A stretch of DNA of 64,000 nt. Origin: an uncultured Verrucomicrobiae bacterium (GTDB taxonomy: Bacteria; Verrucomicrobiota; Verrucomicrobiia; Chthoniobacterales; JAFAMB01). This document shows, one piece after another, positions 4,331 to 63,413 of this stretch. The position numbers and the translations under genes were made by a program. Location of the stretch: NCBI GenBank assembly GCA_963762565.1, contig CAVXLD010000001.1, positions 198,286-262,285 of the forward strand, in the 5' to 3' direction. The notes beneath the pieces are model-generated. The model saw only the letters and a program-made list of their open reading frames with translations. It was not told where the DNA came from and searched no databases. Positions within the stretch are counted from its first letter, which is position 1, and each line of letters opens with the position of its first letter.

Positions 4331-4532
4331 CGGAGCTGGGAGGCGTAAGTGGACGTAGTGGACGAAGTAGACGTAGTGGACAAAGTGGACCGGGAGTGGA
4401 CGATTTAACTCCTCGCCGCCGAATCTGAGGACGTCCACTCCGTCAACTCAGTCCATTCCGTCCACTCCTGTCTACTCGGCCGCCCATGCCCGGCGCACCC
4501 CTACTAGCTCCTAGATTCCAGCTCCTAGCTCC
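4331..4532. repeat. Nested palindrome of 9-nt arrays in the aroC / lysR divergent region
   Basis: Six GTAGTGGAC-type units (4345-4401) are mirrored by five GTCCACTCC-type units (4433-4477). An outer ggagctgggagg (4332-4343) is mirrored by ctagctcctagattccagctcctagctcc (4504-4532). Confidence 0.85.
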
Positions 4533-7792: not shown

Positions 7793-7937
7793 TAGCGAAT
7801 CGGCGTGTGGGCGAAACGGCGAAAGGGCGAAATGGAAGCCGTACGGCGAAAGTTTCGGTGCGCCCATGACGTGCAACTTTCTATCGATGCCGACGCGCCG
7901 AGATTTTCGCCCTTTCGCCCATTCGCCCATTCGCCGG
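7793..7937. repeat. Array-bracketed element H1 (GGCGAAN arrays)
   Basis: Left gtgtgggcgaaacggcgaaagggcgaaatgg. Right ttttcgccctttcgcccattcgcccattcgccgg. The 67-nt core ends in gcgccgag, like a family-A left arm. Confidence 0.75.
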
Positions 7938-7953
7938 TGCGCGCTTCTAGCTC

Positions 7954-8589: not shown

Positions 8590-9651
8590 ATGATTTGGAC
8601 ACCGTTTAACTTCCGAACGACGCTGCTCTACTCAGCGGTCTGGCTCCTCCTGACAGGTACAATGGCGAAGGCAGAACCTCCGAAATTGATATTGCCAACG
8701 GAGAACGACGGCCTTTTGACCGGTAAATTCGCGGAGTTCTATCAATACGTTCAGCGCGATTTCGAGGGCCAAGTCGGCCAGCCGTGGGAGGGCGGCCAGT
8801 ATGGTTTCGTCCGGAACCCAAGACGCATTGGATCGCAGGTCATTTATACGCGATTTCACGAGGGGATCGATATCCGGCCTCTACACCGGGATGCTGCCGG
8901 CGAGCCGGAAGACATCATCCATGCAATCGCCGCCGGAACCGTAGTTTACACAAATCCTGTCGCCAGAAATTCGAACTACGGCCGGTATGTGGTCATCGAA
9001 CATCACCTGGACGGTTTCCCTTATTACAGCCTTTACGCCCATCTGAACACGATCACTGTGAATATTGGCGACTCGGTAGATCAGGGTTCACCGATTGCAG
9101 TGATGGGCCATACCGGCGAGGGGCTCGACAGGGAGCGCGCCCATGTTCATCTGGAGCTAAACCTTCTTTTGAACTCCCATTTTTCAGAATGGTTCCAGGG
9201 ACATCACTCAGCAGACATCGACCGGCACGGTATCTACAATGGGATTAACTTGGCCGGCATCGACATTGGCCGGTTTTATTTGGAGCTCCAAAAGAATCCG
9301 GAGCTTACGGTGCCTACCTTCGTTCAACAGGGAGAACCCTGGTACAGAGTCCTGGTCCCGATATCGCCCCGAATGGATCTGACCGAACGATATCCTTGGC
9401 TGTTAGAAGGCGAAACGGACGCGCCCAGCTGCGAGATCAGTTTCGACCGCACTGGGCTGCCGCTTAAGGTTCGCGGTTCTAGCGAACATGTGACACAGCC
9501 AACGGTATCCTGGGTCCATTCTTCGCCTTTCCCTCAGCATCTGTTGACCAAAGGTTTCATTCGGGACCACGGATCAGGCTACGTTCTCTCAGAGGAGGGA
9601 AACCGGTACATCAGCCTGGTTTGTGACTCGCCTCAGGCTCGCCATCAATAG
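8590..9651 (+). CDS. M23 family metallopeptidase
   Basis: HEGIDIRP, YSLYAHLN, GHTGEG and HVHLELN motifs. N-terminal signal peptide. Confidence 0.85.
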   Translation: MIWTPFNFRTTLLYSAVWLLLTGTMAKAEPPKLILPTENDGLLTGKFAEFYQYVQRDFEGQVGQPWEGGQYGFVRNPRRIGSQVIYTRFHEGIDIRPLHRDAAGEPEDIIHAIAAGTVVYTNPVARNSNYGRYVVIEHHLDGFPYYSLYAHLNTITVNIGDSVDQGSPIAVMGHTGEGLDRERAHVHLELNLLLNSHFSEWFQGHHSADIDRHGIYNGINLAGIDIGRFYLELQKNPELTVPTFVQQGEPWYRVLVPISPRMDLTERYPWLLEGETDAPSCEISFDRTGLPLKVRGSSEHVTQPTVSWVHSSPFPQHLLTKGFIRDHGSGYVLSEEGNRYISLVCDSPQARHQ

Positions 9652-9776
9652 CAGATAGCACTGGAGGGGAGCCGCCTGTTTTCACGTTTTTCGATCGCAG
9701 CTCGGGATCGGCGAAAATGTTGCGCGGTCGCGACGCACGCACCAAAGCGGCTCCCCTCCAGGCTATTGGCTATTTG
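9647..9776. repeat. Family B element, short form (B1) with AATAGCM arrays
   Basis: ggaggggagccgc (9663-9675) pairs with caaagcggctcccctcc (9743-9759). Flanks aatagcagatagca / ggctattggctatttg. Lacks the inner repeat pair. Confidence 0.8.
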
Positions 9777-9841
9777 AGAGCGAGCCTCAGACGAACTCCC
9801 GCCTTGCCCTGCCCTTGAATCCCTTCTAAGAATCTCGGCGC

Positions 9842-19722: not shown

Positions 19723-19947
19723 ATGGTGATTGGTGATTGGTGGGGCGAGGCTCCCGAAAGGCCTTTTAGTCTTATCAAGCGGGTCAGTTCTCACCCGGAG
19801 ATTATGTCCGCTACGCCGATAAACCCGCCGAGCCGTTGGTCCACGCGAACCATGGCTCGGCAGCGTTTCGGCATAGGTCGTATCGTGGTGAGGATCTTCC
19901 CCCTGCCTTGCGATCGTCATCAGGCCTTTCCGGAGCCTCGCCCTACC
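19718..19947. repeat. Family A element, copy A3 with GTGATTG array on the left
   Basis: The array gtgtgaatggtgattggtgattgg contains the mglA stop. TIRs 19739-19758 / 19928-19947. Minimal central hairpin gccgagccgttggt-ccacgcga-accatggctcggc. Confidence 0.9.
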
Positions 19948-19994
19948 AATTACCCGCAGTTGCGCTTCTTGCCACCCTCATATATGTGTCCGAA

Positions 19995-21061: not shown

Positions 21062-21783
21062 AGCCAGCGGCGCGCTCCCTGCAAAATTCCATTTTCGATT
21101 GGGATCGCCCGAGATGGAACGGACGGTTGCTGTGGCTAATTGTGTTTTCTTTAGGCCTACACTTCGCGGGACTTTACGTTTTCCATGTTGTTTACCCGTC
21201 AACCACTTCTCTGCCTCCCCCAGCGGCTCAAGTCTCGGTACTGAATCCACAAAACCCACAGGACCGCCGGCTCCTTGATTGGGTGGACCTAAACGATCCG
21301 TCTGCGATTAGCGCCCCCAAAGTAGACGACAGCCTGGTCGCAAAATTAGTCCCGGGTTATCGTCCGACGTTTAGCGACGAGACCCCTGAAATCCGGAAAA
21401 GCCAGGCCGGCGCCCCAGCCCAGGAGGCGGCTACTCCTTCGCTTTTTACTCCCGACAATCTTTTCCCTAGGCAAGTCAGGCCTGCTTCTGTTCAACGGAA
21501 GACCAGTTTCGCAAGCCACCTTGAGTTCGGGCCCGCCTTGGAAAATAGAAAACCGGCCACACCGGAGAGACTCCCGACCAGCCAGCGGCTCTCAGAACCC
21601 ACGACTTTCTTTGTGGGAATCAATAAGAAAGGCGAAGTAAAATACCTTTTTCTATTGCGAACTTCGGGAAATGATCAGCTGGATCATCTTGCCGAAGAGG
21701 CTGTTAAGCAGCTGAGATTTCAGCCCGATAACACCGAGAGCTGGGACACGGTTTCGCTGCAGTGGGGCAGCGGCGGGAAGTGA
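21058..21783 (+). CDS. TonB-like / hypothetical anchored protein
   Basis: GTGA overlap with exbD. N-terminal TM, Pro-rich linker, and a C-terminal ~70 aa (VKYLFLLRTSGNDQLDHLAEEAVKQLRFQP) compatible with a TonB C-terminal fold. Weak assignment. Confidence 0.45.
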   Translation: MKPAARSLQNSIFDWDRPRWNGRLLWLIVFSLGLHFAGLYVFHVVYPSTTSLPPPAAQVSVLNPQNPQDRRLLDWVDLNDPSAISAPKVDDSLVAKLVPGYRPTFSDETPEIRKSQAGAPAQEAATPSLFTPDNLFPRQVRPASVQRKTSFASHLEFGPALENRKPATPERLPTSQRLSEPTTFFVGINKKGEVKYLFLLRTSGNDQLDHLAEEAVKQLRFQPDNTESWDTVSLQWGSGGK

Positions 21784-21990
21784 TTAGTGATTAGTGATTA
21801 GTGATTGGTGATTGGTGGGGCGCTGGGGCGATGAAAAAACGTGTAACATGGACGCGGACTGGCACTAATACACTTATAAGTCCCGTCTTGTCATAAGCCC
21901 CATCGATATCAGCCGCGCACATCCTTGCTCTAAACGCTTTTCCATCAGCCCAGGCACCCACTAATCACCAATCACTAATCACCAATCACC
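21781..21990. repeat. TGATTAG/TGATTGG array-bracketed element (A-related variant)
   Basis: The left 5 heptamers begin with the TGA stop of the tonB-like gene and are followed by tggggcgctggggcg. Right cccactaatcaccaatcactaatcaccaatcacc. The core lacks the canonical A TIR. Confidence 0.8.
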
Positions 21991-22055
21991 TTCCCTGCCC
22001 TATTGACGCACCCGCCCCTCCGCGGGACGATGTTGGTAGCGGCCACAAACTGTCC

Positions 22056-24780: not shown

Positions 24781-24939
24781 GGGGCGTTTGGCGTTCGGCG
24801 TTCGGCGTTTGGCGTTCGGCGTTCGGCGTTCCTATGATTCGAAATGATTGCAACACTGCGGATCTGTCGTGGCTCGTGAGCAAGCGACGCGCGTTATTGA
24901 AGCGCCGAACGCCAAACGGTGAACGCCGAACGCCAAACG
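24781..24939. repeat. Array-bracketed element G1 (GGCGTTY arrays)
   Basis: Seven GGCGTTY units (24781-24830) start 1 nt after the fabF stop. A 71-nt core follows. The inverted array gcgccgaacgccaaacggtgaacgccgaacgccaaacg is at 24902-24939. Confidence 0.85.
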
Positions 24940-25800
24940 AGTAAGTACGTCGTTCTTCTGCTCCTGACCGCATTGTTTTGGTCGTTGGGAGGAGTCCTCA
25001 TCAAGTCCATCGATTGGAATCCTGTCGCCATTGCGGGTTCGCGAAGCTTGATCGCCGTCTTCCTAATCGCCATCCTGCGACCGTCCGCCGTCCGTAAATT
25101 TTCCTGGACCGCATTCTTCGGCGGAATCGCCTACATGGTGACAGTTGTGTTGTTCGTGATTGCAACCAAGCTGACAACCGCTGCCAATGCCATTTTTCTC
25201 CAGTACACGGCTCCGATTTATATCGCTCTGATAAGCCCATGGCTTTTGAAGGAACGTGTTCGTCGACTGGACTGGATTCTGATCGGTCTTGCTTTCGGCG
25301 GAATTGCTCTCTTTTTCTGCGACCGGCTCTCCTTTGCCGGAATTTGGGGAGTAATGGCCGCACTTGTCAGCGGCTTCTCCTACGCGTGGCTTACGATGCT
25401 GTTGCGTCGCCAAAAATCGGCATCCCCCGAAGCCACGGTGTTCATAGGCAACTTGATGACTGTGTTAGTGGCGGCTCCGGCGATGTGGCCGCCGGTGAAC
25501 CTGGGCCATAATTGGCCTTGGCTGCTTGCCTTGGGCGTCCTCCAGCTCACGATTCCCTATTTGCTTTATACACAGGCTATCCGGCATGTGCGTGCGCTGG
25601 ATGCATCTATAATCAGCATGATCGAGCCGATCCTTAATCCGATCTGGGTCATGTTTGCCGTGGGCGAACATCCCGCCAGATGGGCAATCGTCGGAGGATG
25701 CATGGTCCTGGGAACCTCTTTGCTACGGAGTATCTTCGCCTCGCGCGAGCCCGAATCCGAATTCGCCTTAGGCTCATCCGGAATGACAAATGACAGATGA
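24919..25800 (+). CDS. DMT (EamA) family transporter
   Basis: About 10 TM helices in two EamA-like halves. The start is uncertain because the first codons lie in the GGCGTTY-type array. The stop and last ~13 codons lie in element F1. Confidence 0.75.
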   Translation: MNAERQTSKYVVLLLLTALFWSLGGVLIKSIDWNPVAIAGSRSLIAVFLIAILRPSAVRKFSWTAFFGGIAYMVTVVLFVIATKLTTAANAIFLQYTAPIYIALISPWLLKERVRRLDWILIGLAFGGIALFFCDRLSFAGIWGVMAALVSGFSYAWLTMLLRRQKSASPEATVFIGNLMTVLVAAPAMWPPVNLGHNWPWLLALGVLQLTIPYLLYTQAIRHVRALDASIISMIEPILNPIWVMFAVGEHPARWAIVGGCMVLGTSLLRSIFASREPESEFALGSSGMTNDR

Positions 25801-25902
25801 AAAATGACAGATTGGGAAATCCTTCGGTCACACGCGTTCTATTTCGGACATTTGTCATCTGTCATTTGTCATTTGTCATTCGAAACGAGCCTCAGGCGAG
25901 TT
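25760..25902. repeat. Family F element, copy F1 (143 nt)
   Basis: aattcgccttaggctcatccggaATGACAAATGACAGATGAAAAATGACAG, core attgggaaatccttcggtcacacgcgttctatttcggac, then the inverted TGTCATY array and cgaaacgagcctcaggcgagtt. Confidence 0.9.
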
Positions 25903-26329
25903 TCGCCGTGTACGTATTCGCAGTGCCAGACAGACACACGACTCCATCCTGATTGCGCACAGTGGTGGCAAGCGTGCAGATCGGTTTGTCGTCACGAACA
26001 GTTGTGACTTCAACCCTGCCGGTAATCACATCTCCGACGTAGACTGCTTTAACAAACTTCCATTCTACCCCGAGAAACACCGTGCCGGGGCCAGGGAGAT
26101 CTTCGGCCACGATCGCGTTCAAAATTCCGGAAGTGATGCCTCCCTGAACGATCAATCCGCCAAACACTGATCTCCCAGCAACTTCGCGGTCATAATGTAA
26201 CGGATTCCGGTCGCCGGTGATCTCTGTAAATAGCGCGATGTCGCGCTCGCTGACTGTTCGGGATCGCTCTGCCGAATCGCCAACTCTCGGTTTCCCACGA
26301 ATTGTTCCCGCCCAACCGTCACTCTTCAT
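25892..26329 (-). CDS. MaoC-family (R)-specific enoyl-CoA hydratase/dehydratase
   Basis: 145 aa hot-dog fold. ITGDRNPLHYD motif. Confidence 0.85.
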   Translation of the reverse strand: MKSDGWAGTIRGKPRVGDSAERSRTVSERDIALFTEITGDRNPLHYDREVAGRSVFGGLIVQGGITSGILNAIVAEDLPGPGTVFLGVEWKFVKAVYVGDVITGRVEVTTVRDDKPICTLATTVRNQDGVVCLSGTANTYTAKLA

Positions 26330-26343
26330 GATGTGACCTCCGG

Positions 26344-26486
26344 ACTCGCCTTAGGCTCGTCCGCAATGACAAATGACAAATAACAGATGACAGATTGGGA
26401 ATTCCTTCGGTCACACGCATTTCTATTTCGGAGATTTGTCATTTGTAATTTGTCATCTGCCATTCCGAACGAGCCTCAGGCGAGTT
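26344..26486. repeat. Family F element, copy F2 (143 nt)
   Basis: Same layout as F1. Core attgggaattccttcggtcacacgcatttctatttcggag. The right end ccgaacgagcctcaggcgagtt supplies the stop of the ABC ATPase gene. Confidence 0.9.
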
Positions 26487-27231
26487 CGGCTTCTGTGAGC
26501 GCTGCTAACACCCGTTCCTTCCAAGCCGTGAAGGCATGATCCTGTCGAGAACGAGGCCGAGGAAGATCGATCCGAAATTGGCGATGAATTTGTCCGGGGC
26601 GTCCCTTGATCACAACGATGCTGTCGGATAATGCGACCGCTTCTTCAATATCGTGCGTCACGAAAAACATGGTCAACGAATGCCTCGCAAAAAGCTCCAT
26701 CAAATGGTCTTGCAGCCGGCTTCGGGTGAGAGCATCGAGGGCGCTAAACGGCTCGTCCAGCAATAGAAGAGATGGTTTTCGCACTAAGGCTCTGGCTATC
26801 GCCACCCTTTGAGCCATCCCTCCCGACAATTGGCGCGGGTAATAATGGGAGAAGGATTCTAAACCAACTTGCTCCAGAATTTCCTTCGCCAACGCTCCGA
26901 TCCGGCTATGCCCGGCCGGGCCGAACCCGAATTCCACATTTTGGCGAACGGTCAGCCACGGCATGAGTCGGGGCTCTTGAAACACGACGCCTAGGTTGGG
27001 GCGTTCGGCATTTGGCGTTTGGCGTTCGGCGTTCGGCGCACGATCGCTATCCCAGCGGATTTCTCCGGAGGTCGGGCGCTCAAGTCCAGCTAGAATCCGC
27101 AACAGCGTGCTTTTGCCCGAGCCGGTCGTACCCACCATCACCGTGACTTGTTGCGGCTCGATCGAAAGCTCAAGATTAGCAATCACCAAAGCGTCACCGT
27201 AAGCCTTCGTTATCTGATCGATTCTTACCAT
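26476..27231 (-). CDS. ABC transporter ATP-binding protein, NitT/TauT (SsuB/TauB-like) family
   Basis: Walker A GTTGSGKST, signature LSGGMAQR, Walker B LLLLDEP. The true start is probably MVRIDQI at 27231, since the track start at 27330 reads through element F3. It contains an in-frame heptamer-array insertion. Confidence 0.9.
   Translation of the reverse strand: MVRIDQITKAYGDALVIANLELSIEPQQVTVMVGTTGSGKSTLLRILAGLERPTSGEIRWDSDRAPNAERQTPNAERPNLGVVFQEPRLMPWLTVRQNVEFGFGPAGHSRIGALAKEILEQVGLESFSHYYPRQLSGGMAQRVAIARALVRKPSLLLLDEPFSALDALTRSRLQDHLMELFARHSLTMFFVTHDIEEAVALSDSIVVIKGRPGQIHRQFRIDLPRPRSRQDHAFTAWKERVLAALTEAELA
26994..27042. repeat. GGCGTTY heptamer array inside the ABC ATPase coding sequence
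   Basis: ggttggggcgttcggcatttggcgtttggcgttcggcgttcggcgcacg. Translated on the minus strand it gives APNAERQTPNAERPN, between the Walker A region and the VVFQEPRLMPW Q-loop. Confidence 0.85.
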
Positions 27232-27243
27232 TGAACTCGCTGA

Positions 27244-27377
27244 GGCTCCTTCAAGATGACAATGACAGATGACAGATGACAAATGTCCGAAATAGACCGC
27301 GCGTGACCGAAGGATCTCCCAATCTGTCATCTGTCATTTGTCATTCCGAACGAGCCTCAGGCGAGTTCGGCTGATAG
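27244..27377. repeat. Family F element, copy F3 (core inverted relative to F1/F2)
   Basis: aactcgctgaggctccttcaagATGACAATGACAGATGACAGATGACAA, core atgtccgaaatagaccgcgcgtgaccgaaggatctcccaatc, then TGTCATCTGTCATTTGTCATtccgaacgagcctcaggcgagtt. Confidence 0.9.
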
Positions 27378-28216
27378 GCGTCCTGCCAGTGCAACGCACG
27401 CTCGGAAACCCAGGCCAAGCATCCGTCAGTCGATTTTCCGCACAGAGCGAATAACAAGATGCTGGTGATCAAAGTGGCGGGACGACCGGTGGTTTGTCCA
27501 TCGATCAGCAGAAACCCGAGACCATGGGTTGCTCCCATGAATTCTGCTGCGACTACAAACATCCAAGCCAGACCTAAACTCTGTCGAAGCCCTACGAAAA
27601 TGGCCGGTAAACTTGCGGGGAGAAATATTCTTCGAGCCAAGCTCCACCCCTTGAAGCCGTTCACCAACGCAACCTCAACCAGTTTCCGGTCAACGCTACG
27701 GATGCTGCTCACGAGCGCCAGGTAGAGCGGAAAGAACGCCCCCAGCGCAATCAAGAGGATCTTCGAGGTCTCAAAAATTCCGAACCACAGAATGAAAAGA
27801 GGGACCCAAGCATACGAAGGTACGCTTCGAATCGCGTGAATGGTCGGGTTGAGTAATCGATACGCGGTTGAGCTAATGCCCGTAACGGTTCCGAGCACTA
27901 TCGCAACTGCGCTGCCTAGACCGAAGCCGCTGAAGACTCGGACAAAAGTGGCCCAGAGATGGACCCAGATCTGCCCGCTCCAAAGCAAACGATTGATTTC
28001 AGCCAGGATCTCGGTTGGCGAAGAAGTAATTGTCCGGTCTAACCATCCAAGGCGAGACGCCATTTCCCAGGCGGTTAGTGCGATTGCCGGAACCACAAAA
28101 CCAAGCAAACTCCATCGCCGGCGCCATTTGACAGGAGTCCGGACTCTATCTCTCGCAGTCTTAGATTCCAAGACATCGACTGGCTCAGCGGCAGGGAGCA
28201 GCGTAGAAGTCGCCAT
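27341..28216 (-). CDS. ABC transporter permease, NitT/TauT (SsuC/TauC-like) family
   Basis: BPD-transporter-type membrane protein. Start preferred at MATSTLL (28216), because the track start at 28255 lies inside element D1. The last ~12 codons are read from element F3. Confidence 0.85.
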   Translation of the reverse strand: MATSTLLPAAEPVDVLESKTARDRVRTPVKWRRRWSLLGFVVPAIALTAWEMASRLGWLDRTITSSPTEILAEINRLLWSGQIWVHLWATFVRVFSGFGLGSAVAIVLGTVTGISSTAYRLLNPTIHAIRSVPSYAWVPLFILWFGIFETSKILLIALGAFFPLYLALVSSIRSVDRKLVEVALVNGFKGWSLARRIFLPASLPAIFVGLRQSLGLAWMFVVAAEFMGATHGLGFLLIDGQTTGRPATLITSILLFALCGKSTDGCLAWVSERALHWQDAYQPNSPEARSE

Positions 28217-28230
28217 TTCTTGGTCCCCTC

Positions 28231-28524
28231 TTGTGTCCTGTCCCATAAGTAACATGGCTTTCGCCGTCGGCCAGTTGGCTGTTTTTCAAGGCGCGAGCGA
28301 AGCGCCCATATCTGGTTCATACGGGTCGAGCGAGCAACGCGGAAAAACAGCCAACTGGCCACGGCCCGGAGGGTTGCGATGAAAATGGGCCGGCGGCTGC
28401 GTTGCTCGTCGGTTACGTATCGATCAAGATATGCGCCCTCTACCGCCAGTCCGGCTCGGACCGCCTTGCCGGCGGCCCATTTTGATCGCAACGAAAGCCA
28501 TGTTACTTATGGGACAGGACACTA
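28231..28524. mobile_element. Family D MITE-like element, copy D1 (294 nt)
   Basis: About 33-nt TIRs: tgtgtcctgtcccataagtaacatggctttcg / cgaaagccatgttacttatgggacaggacacta. It fills the gap between the SBP stop (28522-28524) and the permease start (28216). About 96% identical to D2. Confidence 0.9.
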
Positions 28525-29649
28525 GTTGGCAGTCGCGATCCGATCCGCAAACGAGGGATCGAGCAATTCATTCACGATCCTGTCCACGTCGGTGTTGGGA
28601 TCGATGATTCCGTTCGCTTTCAAGGCGTTGGCGGAATCCAGAATAACCTGGCGCTGAGTCGCTCCGAGCCGCGAATCCTTCAGGTTGGTCCTTTCCCACA
28701 CCTTCTCCGCAACGGCCGGGCTTAATTGAGCCGCTGACTGTAGGATGGTACGCGCTTCGTCCGAATGATCCAGGCACCACAGGCGGGCTTTCTCATAAGT
28801 TCGGAGAACGCGCTCAGTAATATCCGGATGCTCGAAAGCGAAAGCTTCCCGTACGTTCAATACCCCGAAACTGTTCCAATCCGCTCGGCGAAAAAACAGC
28901 TTAAATCCCTTGTCGACCTCTAGCTGTGCCATGTACGGATCCAGCCCGGCCCAAGCATCGACCTGCCCCCGTTCCAACGCGACTTTGCCGTCGGGATGCT
29001 GCAAAGGTACAACCTGGATATCCTTTTCGCTCAACCCAGCGGAGGCGAGTGACCGCAAAAGAAAAATATGAGGATCAGTTCCGCGAGTCACGGCCACGCG
29101 TTTGCCACGCAGATCTTCGATCCGCGTTATTCCGGAGCTTGGGCTTGTTACCAGCGCGGTCCATTCGGGCGCAGAATAAACGTAAATCGCTTTGATTGGG
29201 TTGCCGTTTGCTCGCCCGATAAATGCCGCCGCTCCCGCGGTTGAGCCGAAGTCGACACTTTTGCCCCTTAGATACTCCAGCGCTTTGTTACTACCCAGGC
29301 TCTGCACCCACTCCACCTTGATGCCGCTTGAGCCCAGATCCTCCTCTAGCCATTTCTTGTCCTTGAGCACCAGGCTAATCGGATTGTAGTACGCCCAATC
29401 GACTCGAACGGTGTCGACGCTTCCGGCCTTGGAAAATTCGCCAAACCAGAGCGACCCAAACAAACACATAAGGGACAAAATCGAGCTCAGGCGACCTCGC
29501 CTCGGTGATGGCTTAGTTGTGTCACCGTACGCGCGAGGGGGATTGTACCTCGGGCTGCCATGCCTGGAAGATCGAAGTCGGACGGAAAGAATACTGTGCT
29601 GATAGGGTTTCACCCTCCCCATCTCTAGATGTAATCCGCCCGAACGCAA
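28522..29649 (-). CDS. ABC transporter substrate-binding protein, NMT1/SsuA-like
   Basis: Periplasmic-binding-protein pattern (VRVDWAYYNPISLVLK..., AVTRGTDPHIFLL). The start codon is uncertain, with several in-frame ATGs between 29469 and 29649. Confidence 0.8.
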   Translation of the reverse strand: MRSGGLHLEMGRVKPYQHSILSVRLRSSRHGSPRYNPPRAYGDTTKPSPRRGRLSSILSLMCLFGSLWFGEFSKAGSVDTVRVDWAYYNPISLVLKDKKWLEEDLGSSGIKVEWVQSLGSNKALEYLRGKSVDFGSTAGAAAFIGRANGNPIKAIYVYSAPEWTALVTSPSSGITRIEDLRGKRVAVTRGTDPHIFLLRSLASAGLSEKDIQVVPLQHPDGKVALERGQVDAWAGLDPYMAQLEVDKGFKLFFRRADWNSFGVLNVREAFAFEHPDITERVLRTYEKARLWCLDHSDEARTILQSAAQLSPAVAEKVWERTNLKDSRLGATQRQVILDSANALKANGIIDPNTDVDRIVNELLDPSFADRIATAN

Positions 29650-29688
29650 GCCGTTTCGCGCCTAGCGCAGGCGAGCCGGTCACGACTT

Positions 29689-29892
29689 GGAGGGGAGCCG
29701 CTTTGGAATTTTGCGGATCCGTAAGTTGGCAGCAAGCGGCTCCCGGGAACGGTCCAGGGCTGGGCAGCTCTGTGACGGCTTCAAATCGATGCTTGCAACC
29801 GGGTTCTTCCGCCGTGCCTCACATTGGGTAATTCCCGGGAGCCGCTTGCTACCAACCTACAGATCTGCCACGCTACAAAGCGGCTCCCCTCC
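29689..29892. repeat. Family B element, copy B2 (204 nt, double nested inverted repeats)
   Basis: Outer ggaggggagccgctttg (29689-29705) / caaagcggctcccctcc (29876-29892). Inner ttggcagcaagcggctcccgggaa (29726-29749) / ttcccgggagccgcttgctaccaa (29832-29855). Confidence 0.9.
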
Positions 29893-30018
29893 AGTCCTTG
29901 GGCGTGCGACGCCACCGGGCTGATTGCGATGACGAGAACGAAGATGATCGCGCCACAGTGATCACTCACTCCTTGCAAGCCCAGCAGCTCCAGGCCACGG
30001 TTTGGCAGACCTAAAGTT

Positions 30019-31053: not shown

Positions 31054-31345
31054 TTAGTGATTAGTGATTGGCGATGGCGCTGGTCGGGCGAGGCTCCCGA
31101 AAGAACTAAAGTCTCTAACGAAGATCCAGACGTTTCGGCCTGAAAGAGTTTGTTAGGCCGATCGGTGTGCCGAGCCGTGGTTCCGCGCGTAACCCGGCTC
31201 GGCGCGTTGCTAGAAGTAGCATGCCTTCTTAATTCGGAATGCGAAGGGAGATGGAAAATCACAGAGTCTTTCGGGAGCCTCGCCCTACCAACGGCGTCTC
31301 ATCCACCATCACCTCTCACCAATCACCAATCACTTCTCACCTTCT
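31051..31345. repeat. Family A element, copy A5 with inverted TGATTAG-type arrays
   Basis: The array starts on the aldo/keto reductase TGA stop. TIRs 31082-31101 / 31270-31289. Central hairpin gccgagccgtggtt-ccgcgcgt-aacccggctcggc. Right array atcaccaatcaccaatcact (to ~31345). Confidence 0.9.
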
Positions 31346-33564: not shown

Positions 33565-33858
33565 TAGTGTGCTGTCCCATAAATAACATGGCTTTCGCCG
33601 TCGGTCAGTTGGCTGTTTTTCAAGGCGCGAGCGAAGCGCCCATATCTGGTTCATACGGGTCGAGCGAGCAACGCGGAAAAACAGCCAACTGGCCTCGGCC
33701 CGGAGGGTTGCGATGAAAATGGGCCGGCGGCTGCGTTGCTCGTCGGTTACGTATCGATCTAGATATGCGCCCCTTACCGCCAGTCCGGCTCGGACCGCCT
33801 TACCGGCGGCCCATTTTGATCACAACGAAAGCCATGTTATTTATGGGACAGCACACTA
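33565..33858. mobile_element. Family D MITE-like element, copy D2 (294 nt)
   Basis: TIRs tagtgtgctgtcccataaataacatggctttcg / cgaaagccatgttatttatgggacagcacacta. About a dozen substitutions versus D1 and no indels. Confidence 0.9.
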
Positions 33859-33865
33859 GGAGCGC

Positions 33866-36053: not shown

Positions 36054-36055
36054 AT

Positions 36056-36182
36056 GTGGAGCGCTGCCTCGCTTGCGAGGCCGTGGTGAGCAGGGCAAGA
36101 TGCTGTGTCATACGCCATTTTTTCGATGCTAGGTGACGTCGCCCTGCTTACCAACGGCCTCGCAAGCGAGGCAGCGCTCCAC
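36056..36182. repeat. Family E element, copy E1 (127 nt)
   Basis: About 40-nt TIRs: gtggagcgctgcctcgcttgcgaggccgtggtgagcagggc / gccctgcttaccaacggcctcgcaagcgaggcagcgctccac. Each TIR holds the self-complementary CCTCGCTTGCGAGG. Confidence 0.9.
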
Positions 36183-36266
36183 ACGGCGTTCTGGCGCGTT
36201 TACTTGACGCAGAAACGTTCAGGCAGATACTTACGCCGCTAGTCTCCCTATTTATCCCCCAAAACC

Positions 36267-38767: not shown

Positions 38768-38817
38768 CCATGGAAGACATCCCCCAACCTGCCTTTGGCC
38801 GACGCAATTCGGACCCG

Positions 38818-39022
38818 GAGGGGAGCCGCTTTATCGTTAGGCAGCTCTGTAATTCGGCAGCAAGCGGCTCCCGAGAACGGCCCCGGATGATGCAGGTCTA
38901 TTGGGCAGCCATATCGACCAGCTTGGAACAGAGCCGCTGGGCAAATATTTACGCTGGGTTATTCCCGGGAGCCGCCTGCTGCCAACTGATAGGACTGCCA
39001 CACTACAAAGCGGCTCCCCTCC
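38818..39022. repeat. Family B element, copy B3 (205 nt)
   Basis: Outer repeats 38818-38834 / 39006-39022. Inner repeats 38853-38877 / 38962-38985. The right flank ctgggcatgcgacgcc resembles the B2 flank. Confidence 0.9.
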
Positions 39023-39068
39023 AGGCGCTGGGCATGCGACGCCGTGTTCTTAGAAGCACGAAGCGCAC

Positions 39069-40944: not shown

Positions 40945-41762
40945 AATCCCTCTTCAGTTACTATCGATGGTTGGTCTTGCTTCTGGTAGCGAGTTTTTGC
41001 CTGGTTCCATTGTGGGCAACCGTCGTGGGTGGGTTTAAGTCGACGGGTGACCTCCGTACGAATGCTCTCGGCTTGCCCCGGCAGTGGCTGGTAGACAATT
41101 ATATTTCCATCGTCTCGACTCCGCGGTTTTGGCAGATGCTTTGGAATTCGGCTGTGATCGCCTTTTTCACGGTCGTACTAACATTGATAGTCAGTTCACT
41201 AGCTGCATATACTCTAGCTCATTTGCGCTTCGCTGGGCGCAAATGGATCGCCAACTACCTGACCCTGGGACTGACTTTCCCGTTCGCCACTGCAGTCTTG
41301 CCAGTATTTATTCGGGTTCGCGATCTCGGCCTGCTCGACACCTACTGGGGCGTCATCCTCCCCCAAGTCGCCTTTAACTTAAGCTTTAGCATCGTGTTGC
41401 TGCGCGGTTTCTTCTCAGAGTTACCAAAGGAATTGTTTGAAGCTGCGATCATGGATGGTTGCAGTTATCCACGAATCTTTTTGCGCATTACCCTGCCGCT
41501 CTCTCGCCCGATCCTGGCCACTGTCGGCGTTCTGGCTCTGGTCGGAAGCTGGAACAACTTCCTTTTGCCATTGGTTACCATCAATGACGACTCCGTTTAT
41601 CCATGGCCTTTAGGAATCATGCAGTTTCAAGGTCAATACAGCACCGACTGGGGGAAGGTGCTGGCTTTCGTAACCCTCACCATGCTTCCCGCTATCACGC
41701 TGTATCTGATGGCCCAGAAACAGGTCATTGCCGGCCTTACTTCGGGAGCCGTTAAGGGTTAG
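40941..41762 (+). CDS. Carbohydrate ABC transporter permease
   Basis: MalG-type permease with the loop EAAIMDGCSYPRIFLRITLPLSRP. ATGA overlap with the upstream permease. Confidence 0.85.
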   Translation: MKSLFSYYRWLVLLLVASFCLVPLWATVVGGFKSTGDLRTNALGLPRQWLVDNYISIVSTPRFWQMLWNSAVIAFFTVVLTLIVSSLAAYTLAHLRFAGRKWIANYLTLGLTFPFATAVLPVFIRVRDLGLLDTYWGVILPQVAFNLSFSIVLLRGFFSELPKELFEAAIMDGCSYPRIFLRITLPLSRPILATVGVLALVGSWNNFLLPLVTINDDSVYPWPLGIMQFQGQYSTDWGKVLAFVTLTMLPAITLYLMAQKQVIAGLTSGAVKG

Positions 41763-41897
41763 CGTTTGGCGTTTGGCGTTCGGCGTTGGCAGTTGGTAGC
41801 GCTCGAGCTCAGTAAGCGGTTTTCTTCTACATAGCGCTCATTATTTTGGGACGACCACGGCCGCCTTTCACCTTTCACTTCTCACTGATCACTAACC
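41763..41897. repeat. Hybrid array element G2 (GGCGTTY array left, CCTTTCA/CTNATCA array right)
   Basis: cgtttggcgtttggcgttcggcgttggc starts 1 nt after the permease stop. Right side cctttcacctttcacttctcactgatcactaacc. The two arrays are not complementary. Confidence 0.7.
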
Positions 41898-46607: not shown

Positions 46608-46648
46608 GTAAGAGCGGAACGTAACACAGCATTACAAATAACCAAGCT

Positions 46649-46894
46649 GGTGGGGCGAGGCTCCGGAATAACCTGAAATGGCAAACGGAGAACTCGATTT
46701 AGTCTAAACCGAGATCGCGCTTCGCCAATGGGCGCGCCGAGCCGATCCCAGCGTGTGGCAGCCGACGATCGGTCAGGGGGGGTGGAACATGCTGGGACCG
46801 GCTCGGCGCGTTTAGCGGCATCGCCCACGATAGATTGGCAAACATTGACGTCCTCCGCTCGAGCAAAGCGGCCGTTCGGGAGCCTCGCCCCACC
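46649..46894. repeat. Family A element, copy A6 (246 nt)
   Basis: TIRs 46649-46668 / 46875-46894. Internal 9-mers 46736-46744 / 46799-46807. Confidence 0.9.
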
Positions 46895-46902
46895 AACGCC
46901 TC

Positions 46903-47328: not shown

Positions 47329-47340
47329 TCCATTTAATTT

Positions 47341-47422
47341 CACCACAGAGAGACAGAGGACACAAAAGCCAAAATTCGGTTTCCCTTAGGATGACCTTTG
47401 TGTCCCCTGTCTCTCTGTGGTG
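47341..47422. repeat. 26-bp-stem hairpin downstream of clpX
   Basis: caccacagagagacagaggacacaaa (47341-47366) pairs with tttgtgtcccctgtctctctgtggtg (47397-47422), with one mismatch and a 30-nt loop. Confidence 0.85.
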
Positions 47423-47425
47423 AAA

Positions 47426-48694
47426 TTAAGCGGCGTCCTTGTCCTGCTTCCTGCGAATTAGAGGAGCTCGTTTGCCCTCAACCACGGCCCGATTGATCAC
47501 CACGTCAGCGATGTCTTCCCGGCTCGGAACGTCGTACATAACGTCGAGCATGATTTTTTCGAACATGGAACGAAGCGCACGCGCCCCAGTTCCTTTGGTG
47601 GCCGCCTGTTGGGCCAACGCCCGGAGAGCGTCCTTAGTAACCACCAAGTTCACTCCCTCCATCGCCAATAGTTTGGTGTACTGCTTCACCATCGCGTTCC
47701 GCGTGTCGGTCAATATCAGGATTAACTCTTCCTCGGTTAAGGTATCCAGCGCCGTCACAATCGGTAACCGGCCGATGAACTCCGGTATCATCCCGAAGGA
47801 GAGCAGATCTTCGGGTTCGGTATGCCGCAAGGTATCACGCAACTGGAGGTCTGAGGAACTGATTTGAGGCGAATGAAAACCGAGTACTCGGTTCCCTAAC
47901 CGTCGATTAATCAGCCGGTCTAACCCCACAAAGGCTCCGCCGCAGATAAACAAAATCTTTTCCGTGTTAACCTGGATATACTCCTGGTGAGGATGCTTTC
48001 GTCCACCTTGAGGCGGGACATTGCAGCTGCTTCCTTCCAAAATCTTCAGAAGCGCCTGCTGGACGCCCTCACCGGAAACATCGCGGGTAATACTGACGTT
48101 ATCGGTTTTACGGCCGATCTTATCTATTTCATCGATATAAACGATTCCAATCTCGGCTCGTTTAACGTCGTAGTCAGCATTCTGCAGGAGCCGCAAGATG
48201 ATATTCTCGACGTCTTCCCCAACGTAACCGGCCTCGGTCAACGTCGTAGCATCAGCGATACAAAACGGCACATCCAGAATTCGGGCTAGTGTCCTGGCCA
48301 GGAGCGTCTTTCCGCACCCAGTTGGCCCGATCATCAAAATATTGCTCTTTTCAATCTCGACGTCAGCGTATGGATCGAGGGATAGATCCTTGGTCGGGTT
48401 GGCGTTCAGAATCCGCTTGTAATGGTTGTGGACGGCCACGGAAAGGACCTTCTTGGCCGAATCCTGCCCAATCACATGCTGATCGAGTTCGCGCCTGATC
48501 TCGACTGGCTTCGGCACACGCAGCGTTGTGGTCTGCCGTCGGGCGTCCTCGTTTAGCTCTTTATCGAGGATGCCTTTACAAACGTTGATACAATTATCGC
48601 AGATGTAGACACCCGGCCCGGCGATCAATTTGCGAACCTCTGCGTGGCTCTTTCCGCAGAAAGAACACATCGTCAGATTAGAGGCCCGGGCCAT
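47426..48694 (-). CDS. clpX: ATP-dependent Clp protease ATP-binding subunit ClpX
   Basis: N-terminal zinc ribbon CSFCGK...CDNC, Walker A GPTGCGKT, and the IGFG-like loop region. Confidence 0.97.
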
Positions 48695-50796: not shown

Positions 50797-50992
50797 GGGC
50801 GAATAGGCGAAACGGCGAGTGGGTCAATGGGCGAAAAGGCGACAACGCGTCAGAATCATCTCTGAACGCTATGGCAGAAAACTCGACGGTCTCGCGACAC
50901 GAGTTGCTGTTTCAGACAAACGCAGCGGTTTTGAGCCGTTCCGCGGGCACCCTCGCCGTATCGCCCTTTTCGCCCACTCGCCGTTTCGCTCC
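50797..50992. repeat. Array-bracketed element H2 (GGCGAAN arrays)
   Basis: Left gggcgaataggcgaaacggcgagtgggtcaatgggcgaaaaggcgac. Right cctcgccgtatcgcccttttcgcccactcgccgtttcgctcc. 107-nt core. Confidence 0.8.
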
Positions 50993-54883: not shown

Positions 54884-55200
54884 AGTAAGCGGTAAGCAGT
54901 AAGCAGTGGTCAGTACTACGAGCTAAAATCCAGGAGCTAGGAGGGCCGACGGCTGTGGAGCGTGCCTCGCTTGCGAGTCCGTGGTGAGCAAGGCTCATTA
55001 CGTGACATCCCCATCGTCGGCGTACGCTCTTTTGTCTGAAGAGGCAAACCTTGCGATACAGAGCGCTGACCGACATAGGGCATGTGTCGTGGTTCACCCT
55101 TGCTCTCCAACGGCCTCGCAAGCGAGGCACGCTCCACGGCCGTCGCCCCTCCTAGCTCCTAAATTCTAGCTCCTAGCTCCTAAACTGCTTACTGCTTACT
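54884..55200. repeat. Family E element, copy E2, with two nested layers of inverted arrays
   Basis: AGTAAGC units then AGCTAGGAG units on the left. TIRs 54955-54993 / 55098-55137. CTCCTAGCT units then GCTTACT units on the right. Confidence 0.9.
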
Positions 55201-61026: not shown

Positions 61027-61035
61027 AGGGTTTTT

Positions 61036-61317
61036 GGTAGGGCGAGGCTCCCGAACATCCCGACATCTTCGCAACGCCGGGGATGATCTTCTACCAGTGT
61101 ATTAACGTGGCCGATCAGCGCGCCGAGCCGTTGGTCCCAGCGAGTTCCATGACCCACAAGAACGGATCGAAGGTTTTTAAAAGTTCTCGCACGTCGAAGC
61201 GGTTAAATCAGCGCTGGGTAAATCGGCTCGGCGGGCAGACCGGGGCTGGACGCGTTTAATCCAAAAAATCACGGGCCCTGCGAAAGTGCATTCGTAATTC
61301 GGGAGCCTCGCCCTACC
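61036..61317. repeat. Family A element, copy A9 (282 nt)
   Basis: TIRs ggtagggcgaggctcccgaa (61036-61055) / ttcgggagcctcgccctacc (61298-61317). Internal 9-mers 61122-61130 / 61224-61232. Confidence 0.9.
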
Positions 61318-61370
61318 CCCCTCGCAGAGTCCTAGCTAACCAGGACGATTCTGCTACCATAGCCGCATCA

Positions 61371-63092: not shown

Positions 63093-63125
63093 TGTAGACA
63101 TGGACCCGGAAGGGGGAGACACCCG

Positions 63126-63335
63126 GAGGGGAGCCGCTTTGTCAGACGCTAGCTGTGTTCGGTCGGCAGCAGGCGGCTCCCGGGAATAGCCCAGCGCGTT
63201 CTATTTATCCAGCGCCTACTTCGTTGAAGCACCGACACGGACAGAGCCTATAGAGCTGGATTACCTGGCAGACGTTACCGGGAGCCGCCTGCAAGCAACC
63301 GATAGACCTGCCAACTTACAAAGCGGCTCCCCTCC
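63126..63335. repeat. Family B element, copy B4 (210 nt)
   Basis: Outer repeats 63126-63142 / 63319-63335. Inner tcggcagcaggcggctcccgggaa (63163-63186) / ttaccgggagccgcctgcaagcaa (63275-63298). Confidence 0.85.
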
Positions 63336-63342
63336 GGCGCCG

Positions 63343-63413
63343 CGTCGCCGATACGCCCATTCGCCCTTTCGCCCGTTCGCCGATACGCCCACACGCCGAC
63401 ACGCCCATACCCC
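63343..63413. repeat. One-sided NTTCGCC-type array upstream of cdsA
   Basis: cgtcgccgatacgcccattcgccctttcgcccgttcgccgatacgcccacacgccgacacgcccatacccc. No mirrored partner on the left of B4. Confidence 0.7.

Follow-up and report, generated by a model that had tools for sequence, protein, structure and literature searches.

The Correia elements of Neisseria (also called CREE or NEMIS), which are about 100-155 bp long, are bounded by terminal inverted repeats and lie at gene junctions, are co-transcribed with their neighbours to give long mRNA hairpins that are cut by RNase III (PMC2649163, PMC10969869). In Coxiella burnetii all functional genes affected by QMITEs carry the insertion at the 3' end (PMC5896051), and QMITE1 and QMITE2, the ERIC/RU elements of enterobacteria and the Rickettsia palindromic elements give C-terminal residues and stop codons to the genes they overlap, with little change in protein length (PMC5896051, PMC2759123, PMC10969869). 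Stop codons in three frames are also provided by arrays of 7-nt units, the STRR of cyanobacteria and the TAACTGA repeats of Beggiatoaceae and cyanobacteria; arrays of the TAACTGA type are intergenic, contain 2-7 copies, present their stops in one orientation and frequently overlap the stop of the gene upstream (PMC4679880).

The locus described here lies in a 64-kb stretch of DNA (the window) from an uncultured soil verrucomicrobium of the Chthoniobacterales and has the gene order SBP-permease-ATPase-maoC, followed by a convergent eamA gene. The minus strand encodes an NMT1/SsuA-like substrate-binding protein (SBP, 28522..29622, start inferred via orthologues), an ABC transporter permease of the sulfonate/nitrate/taurine type (27341..28216), an ABC transporter ATPase of 251 aa (26476..27231) and a MaoC-like dehydratase (25892..26329), and the plus strand encodes an EamA-family transporter (24919..25800). 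Each junction is occupied, three of them by copies of one family, which we call F (F1-F3, about 135-150 nt), and the other by a 290-nt element, D1. The stop codons of maoC and of the ATPase, permease and eamA genes all lie inside elements. As the same arrangement was found in independent ENA, NCBI and JGI assemblies, it is not an assembly artefact. We consider it probable that F1-F3 belong to an undescribed MITE-like family in soil Chthoniobacterales, that D1 is a second, TA-duplicating MITE and that the protein tails read from the elements are by-products. This is a known kind of event that is well documented here, and F behaves like the Correia, QMITE and ERIC elements. An earlier sequence-only reading had emphasized that every junction of the gene string carries an element, which is true at this locus but is not peculiar to the operon, given that the window holds roughly 25 such hairpin elements. 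Gene callers were misled by the elements: the ATPase was given an N-terminal extension to 284 aa and 45-aa ORFs were called within elements. The ATPase gene also has an in-frame 24-nt insertion of CGCCRAA heptamers at about 27000-27038.

The F family has a common layout of terminal inverted repeats (TIRs), inverted arrays of the heptamer ATGACAR and a variable core. F1 (25757..25905), between the convergent maoC and eamA genes, carries the stop codons of both, with its heptamer arrays at 25782-25812 and 25849-25880 and its core near 25810-25850. F2 (26340..26489) lies between the ATPase gene and maoC, and the maoC Shine-Dalgarno sequence GGAGG (26337-26341, minus strand) adjoins its distal end. 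F3, between the permease and ATPase genes, extends over 27231..27370 (27234-27367 without the outermost bases; the 27244-27377 of the sequence-only reading is off by +10 nt), and its distal TIR contains AAGGAG (27246-27251, minus strand), 14 nt upstream of the ATPase ATG (27229-27231). Across 17 copies the ends are CCGAACTCGCCT(G/T)AGGCTCG... and ...CGAGCCT(C/A)AGGCGAGTTCGG, as expected for the terminal inverted repeats of a MITE. Each end (CCGAAC-TCGCCTGAGGCTC-GTTCGG) is an imperfect palindrome, the two ends being inverted to form a hairpin, and the CCTNAGG centre differs consistently between them, being T in one and G in the other. The arms of F1 and F2 are 53-56 nt long and 81-84% complementary, and those of F3 could be aligned only as shorter pieces of 23-24 nt (83-92%). 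The TIR pattern CGAGCCTNAGGCGAGTT gave 7 matches versus 0.63 expected, the core pattern 3 versus 0 expected and ATGACAR dimers 16 versus 0.06 expected. In F3 the core lies on the other strand, inverted relative to those of F1 and F2, as the sequence-only reading had stated; the similar appearance of the ends is expected from terminal inverted repeats. The palindromic F features and strong hairpins of that reading were likewise borne out, the predicted RNA folds being -68 to -76 kcal/mol for F1-F3 (z -8.9 to -10.4, either strand) and -180.6 kcal/mol for D1 (z -14.8). As in other MITEs, F copies are small (105-150 nt) and have no coding capacity, the only ORFs being spurious ones that run through the heptamers.

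The permease ends in NSPEARSE, its last 8 codons and stop (27341-27343) being within F3 (about 8-9 codons plus the stop, rather than the roughly 12 codons first proposed). The ATPase ends in AELA, of which all four codons and the stop (26476-26478) lie within F2. The last 13 codons and stop of eamA, encoding the tail EFALGSSGMTNDR, are read from F1, and MaoC ends in KLA, with the stop and last 2-4 codons within the F1 right end. These are the gene ends that had been claimed. Relatives that lack the elements differ: without F3 the permease/ATPase junction is an ATGA stop/start overlap (L034, L035), without F2 the ATPase/maoC junction is also an ATGA overlap (L031, L008), and F1 is missing from L031 and L008, orthologous copies being found in L014, L011, L019, L017 and L020. 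The element-free C-termini are WQDxY(K/R)x for the permease (about 70 of the 120 homologues listed), ...ALTE for the ATPase (L031, L008) and, for EamA, ...ALISPAPEAVREE in L031, with ...APEAVREE given for element-free homologues. The ATGA overlaps and different C-termini of these relatives show that the permease, ATPase and EamA tails are element-coded. The sequence-only reading had proposed that the elements supply gene termini and that orthologues lacking them be compared; upon comparison the same tails were not found. For MaoC this proposal stands in part: the stop and the final A come from the element but K and L are also present in an orthologue without F1, which ends in AKLR, so that in net terms a single residue differs (KLR to KLA).

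Three lineages have three different tails at the F2 site, AELA, ANSP and AHSPEARLE. Independent F2 insertions in the window and in L011 were considered and are unlikely, as the flanking GCC and GAGTCCGGAGG junctions are common to both. The F2 insertion is not clean, since the element is separated from the ATG by about 10-13 additional nt, among them the maoC Shine-Dalgarno sequence. At F1 about 13 eamA codons have been replaced, which simple insertion cannot do. Owing to the 7-nt period of ATGACAR, TGA occurs in all three frames and any frame is closed within 11 codons of the canonical F end or 13 codons of the CCTTAGG-type end; the element-supplied tails are thus by-products of tolerated insertions. 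The natural tails cover all three frames of TIR plus heptamers (AELA or KLA, NSPEARSE, PTRLRLVGDDK, ANSP and AHSPEARLE).

D1 (28232..28521) is inserted within the SBP TAG stop codon, the G of which is the first base of the element. It has TIRs of about 31 bp (GTGTSCTGTCCCATAARTAACATGGCTTTCG) and a TA target duplication. A second D1 copy (33567-33859) has TA on both flanks; the copy at the SBP gene is flanked by TA on only one side, and we interpret the TT on its other side as a duplicate that has mutated. Unoccupied, the target reads CTC-TA-ATTGGC; with D1 in place it reads TT(GTGTCC...GGACAC)TA. D1 is present in L004 and L005 and missing from L002, L003 and L014. The TIRs, TA duplication and polymorphic presence are those of a TA-targeting MITE of the IS630 or Tc1-mariner type, which is the candidate transposase family. 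Given that strains lacking D1 are about 99% identical over the locus and that the target TA is duplicated, D1 is a recent MITE insertion.

The F elements are dispersed and vary in presence or absence, as expected of a MITE: the window has three copies plus one hybrid, and copies that differ in core and in length (105-141+ nt) occur in unrelated contexts at 12 metagenome loci (the scan of the metagenome collection gave only 12 exact TIR plus heptamer matches). Some dispersed copies are located in 5' regions and contain no upstream stop codon. Movement was presumably mediated in trans by a transposase. No autonomous element with F ends was found in the window or the fetched loci. F departs from the usual MITE in target-site duplication, as none of the 17 copies is bordered by direct repeats and comparison of filled with empty F2 and F3 sites gave no clean duplication. 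A search of 185,579 species genomes with a 22-nt core pattern gave one match, a chance occurrence in a coding region of a Bacillota MAG. Hence, the species representatives do not include the source species or its elements. At gathering thresholds no Rfam family matched the elements; at E<=1 there were only weak matches to microRNA precursors (29.6 bits versus a threshold of 72), attributable to generic hairpin structure. A search of the plasmid database with F1 recovered no element, only a (TTGTCAT)7 array of direct repeats in Nostoc. Integron attC sites have the core-site consensus RYYYAAC and GTTRRRY, and integrons show cassette-type variation in gene content with an integrase nearby. This identity was rejected for F because the ends GCCGAAC and GTTCGGC misfit these core sites and the operon gene order is conserved across relatives.

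REP elements have classically been proposed to stabilise upstream mRNA segments, and REP/BIME and REPIN elements, which lack target duplications and are inverted doublets that fold as hairpins, resemble F in being extragenic palindromes found within operons. The F elements might therefore be REPIN-type REP doublets moved by a RAYT (IS200-like) transposase rather than MITEs derived from insertion sequences, since they too lack target duplications, have imperfectly palindromic ends inverted into a hairpin and are extragenic in location. We consider this improbable. The F ends carry neither the GTAG nor the CGTC tag that define two large REP superfamilies (PMC3733652), they are 60-100 nt apart, with heptamer arrays and core between them, unlike the ends of REP doublets, and no RAYT gene adjoins any copy in the loci examined. 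Moreover, F is 135-150 nt long versus the 20-40 nt of REP units and reaches into coding sequence. That the F hairpins are ordinary terminators or promoter carriers, each gene being its own transcription unit, seems more improbable still. F1 does lie between convergent genes, where a bidirectional terminator is expected, and promoters are known to arise from Correia elements (PMC2649163), but the F hairpins are not followed by T-runs, none of the seven terminator-like sites (no excess over shuffles, which gave 5.4) and neither of the two promoter-like sites falls within an F element, and the genes of relatives overlap at these junctions. The ancestral ATGA overlaps and the lack of promoter-like and terminator-like sites in the F elements make co-transcription of the operon plausible on sequence grounds, and the mRNA would carry the hairpins. 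The interpretation given by the sequence-only reading is partly supported: the elements do supply gene termini and a co-transcribed string with a hairpin at each cistron boundary is plausible, and a REP-like effect on mRNA stability is a proposal.

A less remote alternative, although one we hold only tentatively, is that the host has domesticated the F hairpins as intercistronic RNA modules that act as RNase III sites or REP-like stability barriers and so set how much SBP, permease, ATPase and MaoC are made relative to one another, or that substitute for ATGA coupling if a terminating ribosome were to melt the stem and free a ribosome-binding site in or beside the distal arm. At orthologous sites the F arms are 0.83-0.89 identical, far more conserved than four-fold degenerate sites (0.33-0.57) or the cores (about 0.56), which are swapped between copies. 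Site-specific arm variants are retained (GAATTC in F1, GGAC...TCCGC in F2 and AAGGAG in F3), which argues against simple homogenisation, and AAGGAG is invariant in seven F3-site orthologues, whereas other copies have AACGAG. Such conservation and retention are unexpected for a purely selfish, decaying insertion. At all three elements the upstream stop falls within the proximal arm, and when F3 was folded with a ribosome footprint at the permease stop, the predicted pairing of the ATPase SD..AUG region fell from 0.84 to 0.50. However, the same fold test at F2 showed no effect (0.59 versus 0.58), the 14 nt between AAGGAG and ATG is long for a Shine-Dalgarno sequence, and the copies in 5' regions have no upstream stop inside. 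The T versus G at the CCTNAGG centre fits distinct left and right transposon ends, and core swapping indicates active recombination between copies, which could also maintain the arms. In L008 GCCTGAGGC has become GCTTGATGC on one arm and the other arm has the matching complementary change, a pairing that would suit a selected hairpin, but quasi-palindrome correction can mimic compensatory change. Paired arm changes are expected alike from inverted-repeat ends, hairpin selection and palindrome correction and hence do not discriminate. A narrower proposal, that the F elements are retained modules that re-create the lost ATGA coupling, perhaps with an RNase III site that sets subunit stoichiometry, we regard as doubtful; host-level purifying selection would keep the arms and leave the cores free to swap, and the proximal arm would hold the upstream stop while the arm paired with it would hold the ribosome-binding site, which at F3 is AAGGAG. 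Judged from sequence, arm conservation, core swapping and AAGGAG before the ATPase start are hints of a secondary host use of the hairpins.

If, as we favour, F and D1 are MITE insertions that left tails as by-products, the ancestral SBP-permease-ATPase-maoC operon would have been compact with ATGA stop/start overlaps. F3 would have inserted first at the permease/ATPase overlap, followed by F1 and F2, with D1 arriving very recently. Insertion at or near a stop codon would remove the stop, and the survivors would be those insertions that quickly restored a stop and left the next start intact. The architecture of F would ensure a stop, in that a ribosome entering from either side would meet a TIR and then an (ATGACAR)n array. 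Secondary co-option may have followed at least at F3, where the stem could hide the ATPase ribosome-binding site until opened by the ribosome finishing the permease.

Compared with the described systems, F is like the Correia elements in size, terminal inverted repeats and location at gene junctions, and RNase III cleavage and promoter creation are attributable to F only by analogy. D1 shares the TA target duplication of Correia elements, whereas F does not. F and Correia elements have no sequence similarity, and the Correia core is conserved with an IHF site, whereas the F core is variable and accompanied by inverted heptamer arrays. F overlaps the 3' ends of functional genes as do the QMITE, ERIC/RU and Rickettsia elements, which have other sequences and belong to another phylum. 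Unlike those cases, every junction of one operon is taken up here, by a second MITE and three copies of a single family, which have replaced ATGA overlaps, and each event is documented by orthologous empty sites. The 7-nt unit arrays with stops in three frames are shared with STRR and TAACTGA repeats, and the Nostoc plasmid array has the same heptamer unit as F; the STRR and TAACTGA arrays are direct and stand alone, whereas F has two inverted, TIR-enclosed arrays that move as one unit.

The locus provides an unusually complete natural time series, in which each of four insertions, differing in age, is represented by both empty and filled orthologous sites, and it shows small mobile hairpins dismantling a translationally coupled operon without killing it. 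By having arms with stops in all three frames, the element limits its own damage. If the arms are truly under host selection, these elements would offer a tractable example of MITEs co-opted to exert intercistronic control, in a soil phylum about which little is known.

A row of minus-strand genes encoding an NMT1/SsuA-like substrate-binding protein (SBP, 28522-29622), a BPD_transp_1 permease (27341-28216), an ABC ATPase (26476-27231) and a MaoC-like dehydratase (25892-26329) meets a plus-strand EamA transporter gene (24919-25800) head-on. The sequence-only reading placed an element at every junction of this row, and this was borne out: the 290-nt element D1 lies between the SBP and permease genes (28232-28521), and three copies of the palindromic family F lie at the permease/ATPase (F3, 27234-27367), ATPase/maoC (F2, 26340-26489) and maoC/eamA (F1, 25757-25905) junctions. 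The earlier F3 coordinates were off by +10 nt; the remainder of the description stands. The exact MaoC protein and the same arrangement were found on contigs of several ENA, NCBI and JGI assemblies, hence the structure is not an assembly artefact. Contigs bearing the locus include those of ENA ERZ25039470, ERZ25039474 and ERZ25039506 and of GCA_049285175.1. The named homologues are from Chthoniobacterales or Verrucomicrobia MAGs. Public gene calls push the ATPase start into F3 via an ATG of the heptamer array (284 or 282 aa, not 251) and place 44-45-aa ORFs inside F2; these miscalled ORFs (related loci L002 2000-2854 and 2867-3004, L007 642-1490 and L011 3870-4004) are artefacts that the elements introduce into the annotation.

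F1-F3 have the ends CCGAACTCGCCT(G/T)AGGCTCG... and ...CGAGCCT(C/A)AGGCGAGTTCGG, arms of three to five ATGACAR heptamers that are inverted on the opposite arm, and a common core of about 40 nt, which in F3 lies on the opposite strand, as had been noticed from the sequence. The end pattern gave 7 matches versus 0.63 expected by chance, the heptamer (dimer) pattern 16 versus 0.06 and the core pattern 3 versus 0. Each copy is predicted to fold as a single long hairpin (-68 to -76 kcal/mol, z about -9 to -10), and either strand folds as well as the other. Across the F copies, those in other contexts included, the heptamers number 3 to 6 and the cores are wholly different; the architecture is modular. 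No Rfam family matched, and among 185,579 species-representative genomes the core turned up just once, as a chance hit. In some copies (L014 2983-2998, and inside F arms in L016, L018 and L026) the heptamer arms enclose a 16-nt mini-palindrome, TCCGGCGGCTGCCGGA, which could be a mobile unit of even smaller size. A near variant, TCCGGCAGCTGCCGGA, occurs in an unrelated hairpin element (L008 4500-4515). At 9625-9797 F-type ends (GACTCGCCTCAGGCTCG ... CGAGCCTCAGACGAACT) surround different short repeats (CAATAGC/AGATAGC) and an inner inverted repeat, GGAGGGGAGCCGC, belonging to another family of the window; this hybrid suggests that modules are exchanged between element families.

Empty sites show what the insertions did to the genes. 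In the outgroup loci L034, on a 5-Mb contig, and L035 the F3 site is a permease/ATPase ATGA overlap and the permease ends in WQDAYQV* or WQDSYRP*. Among the 120 matches listed, permease homologues with less than about 75% identity stop two to four residues past WQDxY, and nearly all closer homologues end in (N/D)SPEARSE* or, in another frame, PTRLRLVGDDK*. Hence, the last eight codons and the stop of the window permease are read from F3. As the distal junction, GCGAGTTCA-ATGG, is identical in seven lineages, F3 is indicated to be one old insertion. The F2 site is likewise an ATGA overlap in the related loci L031 and L008, where the ATPase ends ...ALTE*, versus ...ALTE-AELA* in the window, ...ALTD-ANSP* in L011 and ...ALTA-AHSPEARLE* in L019. 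EamA ends ...SRESESALISPAPEAVREE* in L031 versus ...SREPESEFALGSSGMTNDR* in the window, and MaoC ends AKLR* versus AKLA*, a net change of one residue. The claim that the elements supply gene termini is therefore supported: we looked for the same tails in element-less orthologues, and these have other ends. Given that the tails at one site vary among lineages, the tail peptides themselves are not conserved. Where F1 is missing, the maoC/eamA spacer holds hairpins of other families (L031 4346-4506 and L008 4442-4550), one with ATAGGAC-type heptamers and the other with GGGAGGG...CCCTCCCC ends; this convergent junction is thus held by different families in different lineages.

D1 (predicted fold -180.6 kcal/mol, z -14.8) is present in the window, L004 and L005 and missing in L002 and L003 (about 99% identical to the window) and L014 (about 97%), in which the site reads ...GCCAAT-TAG-AGGGGACC. 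On the plus strand the site reads CTC-TA-ATTGGC when empty and CTC-TT[GTGTCC...GGACAC]TA-GTTGGC when filled. A second copy (33567-33859, 96% identical) has TA on both flanks. D1 is therefore a recent, TA-duplicating MITE. It inserted into the SBP gene's TAG stop, which is re-formed with the first G of D1.

The build of the F arms accounts for the closing of reading frames. From either side the first arm met consists of the terminal inverted repeat (TIR) followed by (ATGACAR)n, and a 7-nt unit containing TGA is necessarily hit in all three frames. The canonical (CCTGAGG) end reads GAA CTC GCC TGA in frame 0, AAC TCG CCT GAG GCT CGT TCG GAA TGA in frame 1 and ...AAT GAC AAA TGA in frame 2, and gives a stop within 11 codons in every frame; for the CCTTAGG-type end, the tails observed reach 13 codons at most, in EamA. 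All three frames are represented by real protein tails. Stop codons are missing from the inverted arm, (YTGTCAT)n, but this arm is never the first to be read. This closure agrees with the three-frame stop property described for TAACTGA heptamer arrays (PMC4679880), and stops at gene ends are consistent with QMITEs, which overlap functional genes solely at their 3' ends (PMC5896051). An insertion into an ATGA overlap necessarily destroys the upstream stop, and tolerance is limited to elements that quickly give one back. About five of nine further F copies in other contexts contain the 3' end of a neighbouring gene, the others being located in 5' or divergent regions; stop codons are therefore not strictly targeted.

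The ancestral ATGA overlaps imply one transcript and, as neither promoter-like nor terminator-like sites occur in the F elements, the operon mRNA most probably carries the hairpins, which might affect segment stability in the REP-like way that the sequence-only reading suggested. Between lineages the F3 TIRs are well conserved (mean identity 0.89 proximal, 0.83 distal), the heptamer arms less so (about 0.78) and the core least (0.56); the corresponding value for four-fold degenerate sites in the flanking genes is 0.33-0.57. Cores at orthologous sites are unrelated between lineages, and the three cores of the window lineage are 88-93% alike, a pattern we read as core swapping plus homogenisation on a local scale, driven by recombination through the arms. 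Particular arm variants are retained in the L019 orthologues of F1 (GAATTC...CATCCGG) and F2 (GGAC...GTCCGC). AAGGAG, a putative ribosome-binding sequence in the distal TIR of F3 that precedes the ATPase ATG by 14 nt, is kept in 7/7 F3-site orthologues, and other copies have AACGAG there. When the 5' part was kept open as far as 12 nt beyond the stop of the permease, the predicted pairing of the F3 SD..AUG region, 0.84 otherwise, fell to 0.50; F2, tested in this way, showed no effect. These data would fit a host-level constraint on the hairpins, such as structural coupling or RNase III processing like that of Correia elements (PMC2649163, PMC10969869). Concerted evolution plus quasi-palindrome correction could account for them as well, and we consider secondary co-option of the F hairpins rather unlikely.

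About 25 long hairpin elements of several families occur in the window, including the fabF/eamA spacer and the SBP upstream region, so an element at every junction is not specific to this operon, and the genome appears saturated with them. Many are inverted arrays of 7-9-nt units beside G+C-rich inverted repeats such as TGGTGGGGCGAGGCTCCCGAA. Among the roughly 25 elements are 4347-4477, 7795-7942, 19732-19954, 21775-21994, 31073-31298, 36055-36183, 38814-39025, 46647-46901, 47334-47429, 50798-50989, 54916-55176, 61035-61324 and 63121-63412. Between the SBP gene and a divergent aldo/keto reductase gene, likely in the promoter region of the operon, lies a 206-nt inverted-repeat element (29688-29893; 62-nt arms, 85% complementary) with related copies at 38814-39025 and 63121-63302. 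The ATPase gene carries an in-frame 24-nt insertion of CGCCRAA heptamers (27000-27038) that adds 8 aa in ...RAPNAERQTPNAERPN..., between the Walker A and Q-loop regions, and is absent in L011, L031, L008 and L028. A 1-nt deletion within this array splits the L014 gene into two ORFs; this is a genuine frameshift or else an error of the assembly. The same unit, as GGCGTTY, forms the inverted-array hairpin filling the fabF/eamA spacer (24783-24939) and recurs at 41754-41806; this heptamer family is thus found in intergenic DNA as well as within a gene. On plasmid pn1 of the cyanobacterium Nostoc sp. UHCC 0926 (591299-591330) the 7-nt unit of the F arms forms a lone direct array, (TTGTCAT)7, without an inverted partner, which is probably an STRR-type repeat.

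As to identity, F does not qualify as a REP/REPIN element, as it has no GTAG/CGTC tag (PMC3733652); it also lacks the defining features of attC sites and of terminators or promoters. No target duplication was detectable around 17 copies, and no autonomous partner with the same ends was found in the window and retrieved loci. In having TIRs and in its small size, non-coding nature, dispersal and polymorphism F behaves like a MITE. MITE-like hairpin elements are a known kind, of which F is a new family with a distinctive build of TIR, inverted heptamers and swappable core, and its insertion history at the SBP-permease-ATPase-maoC/eamA locus is well documented.
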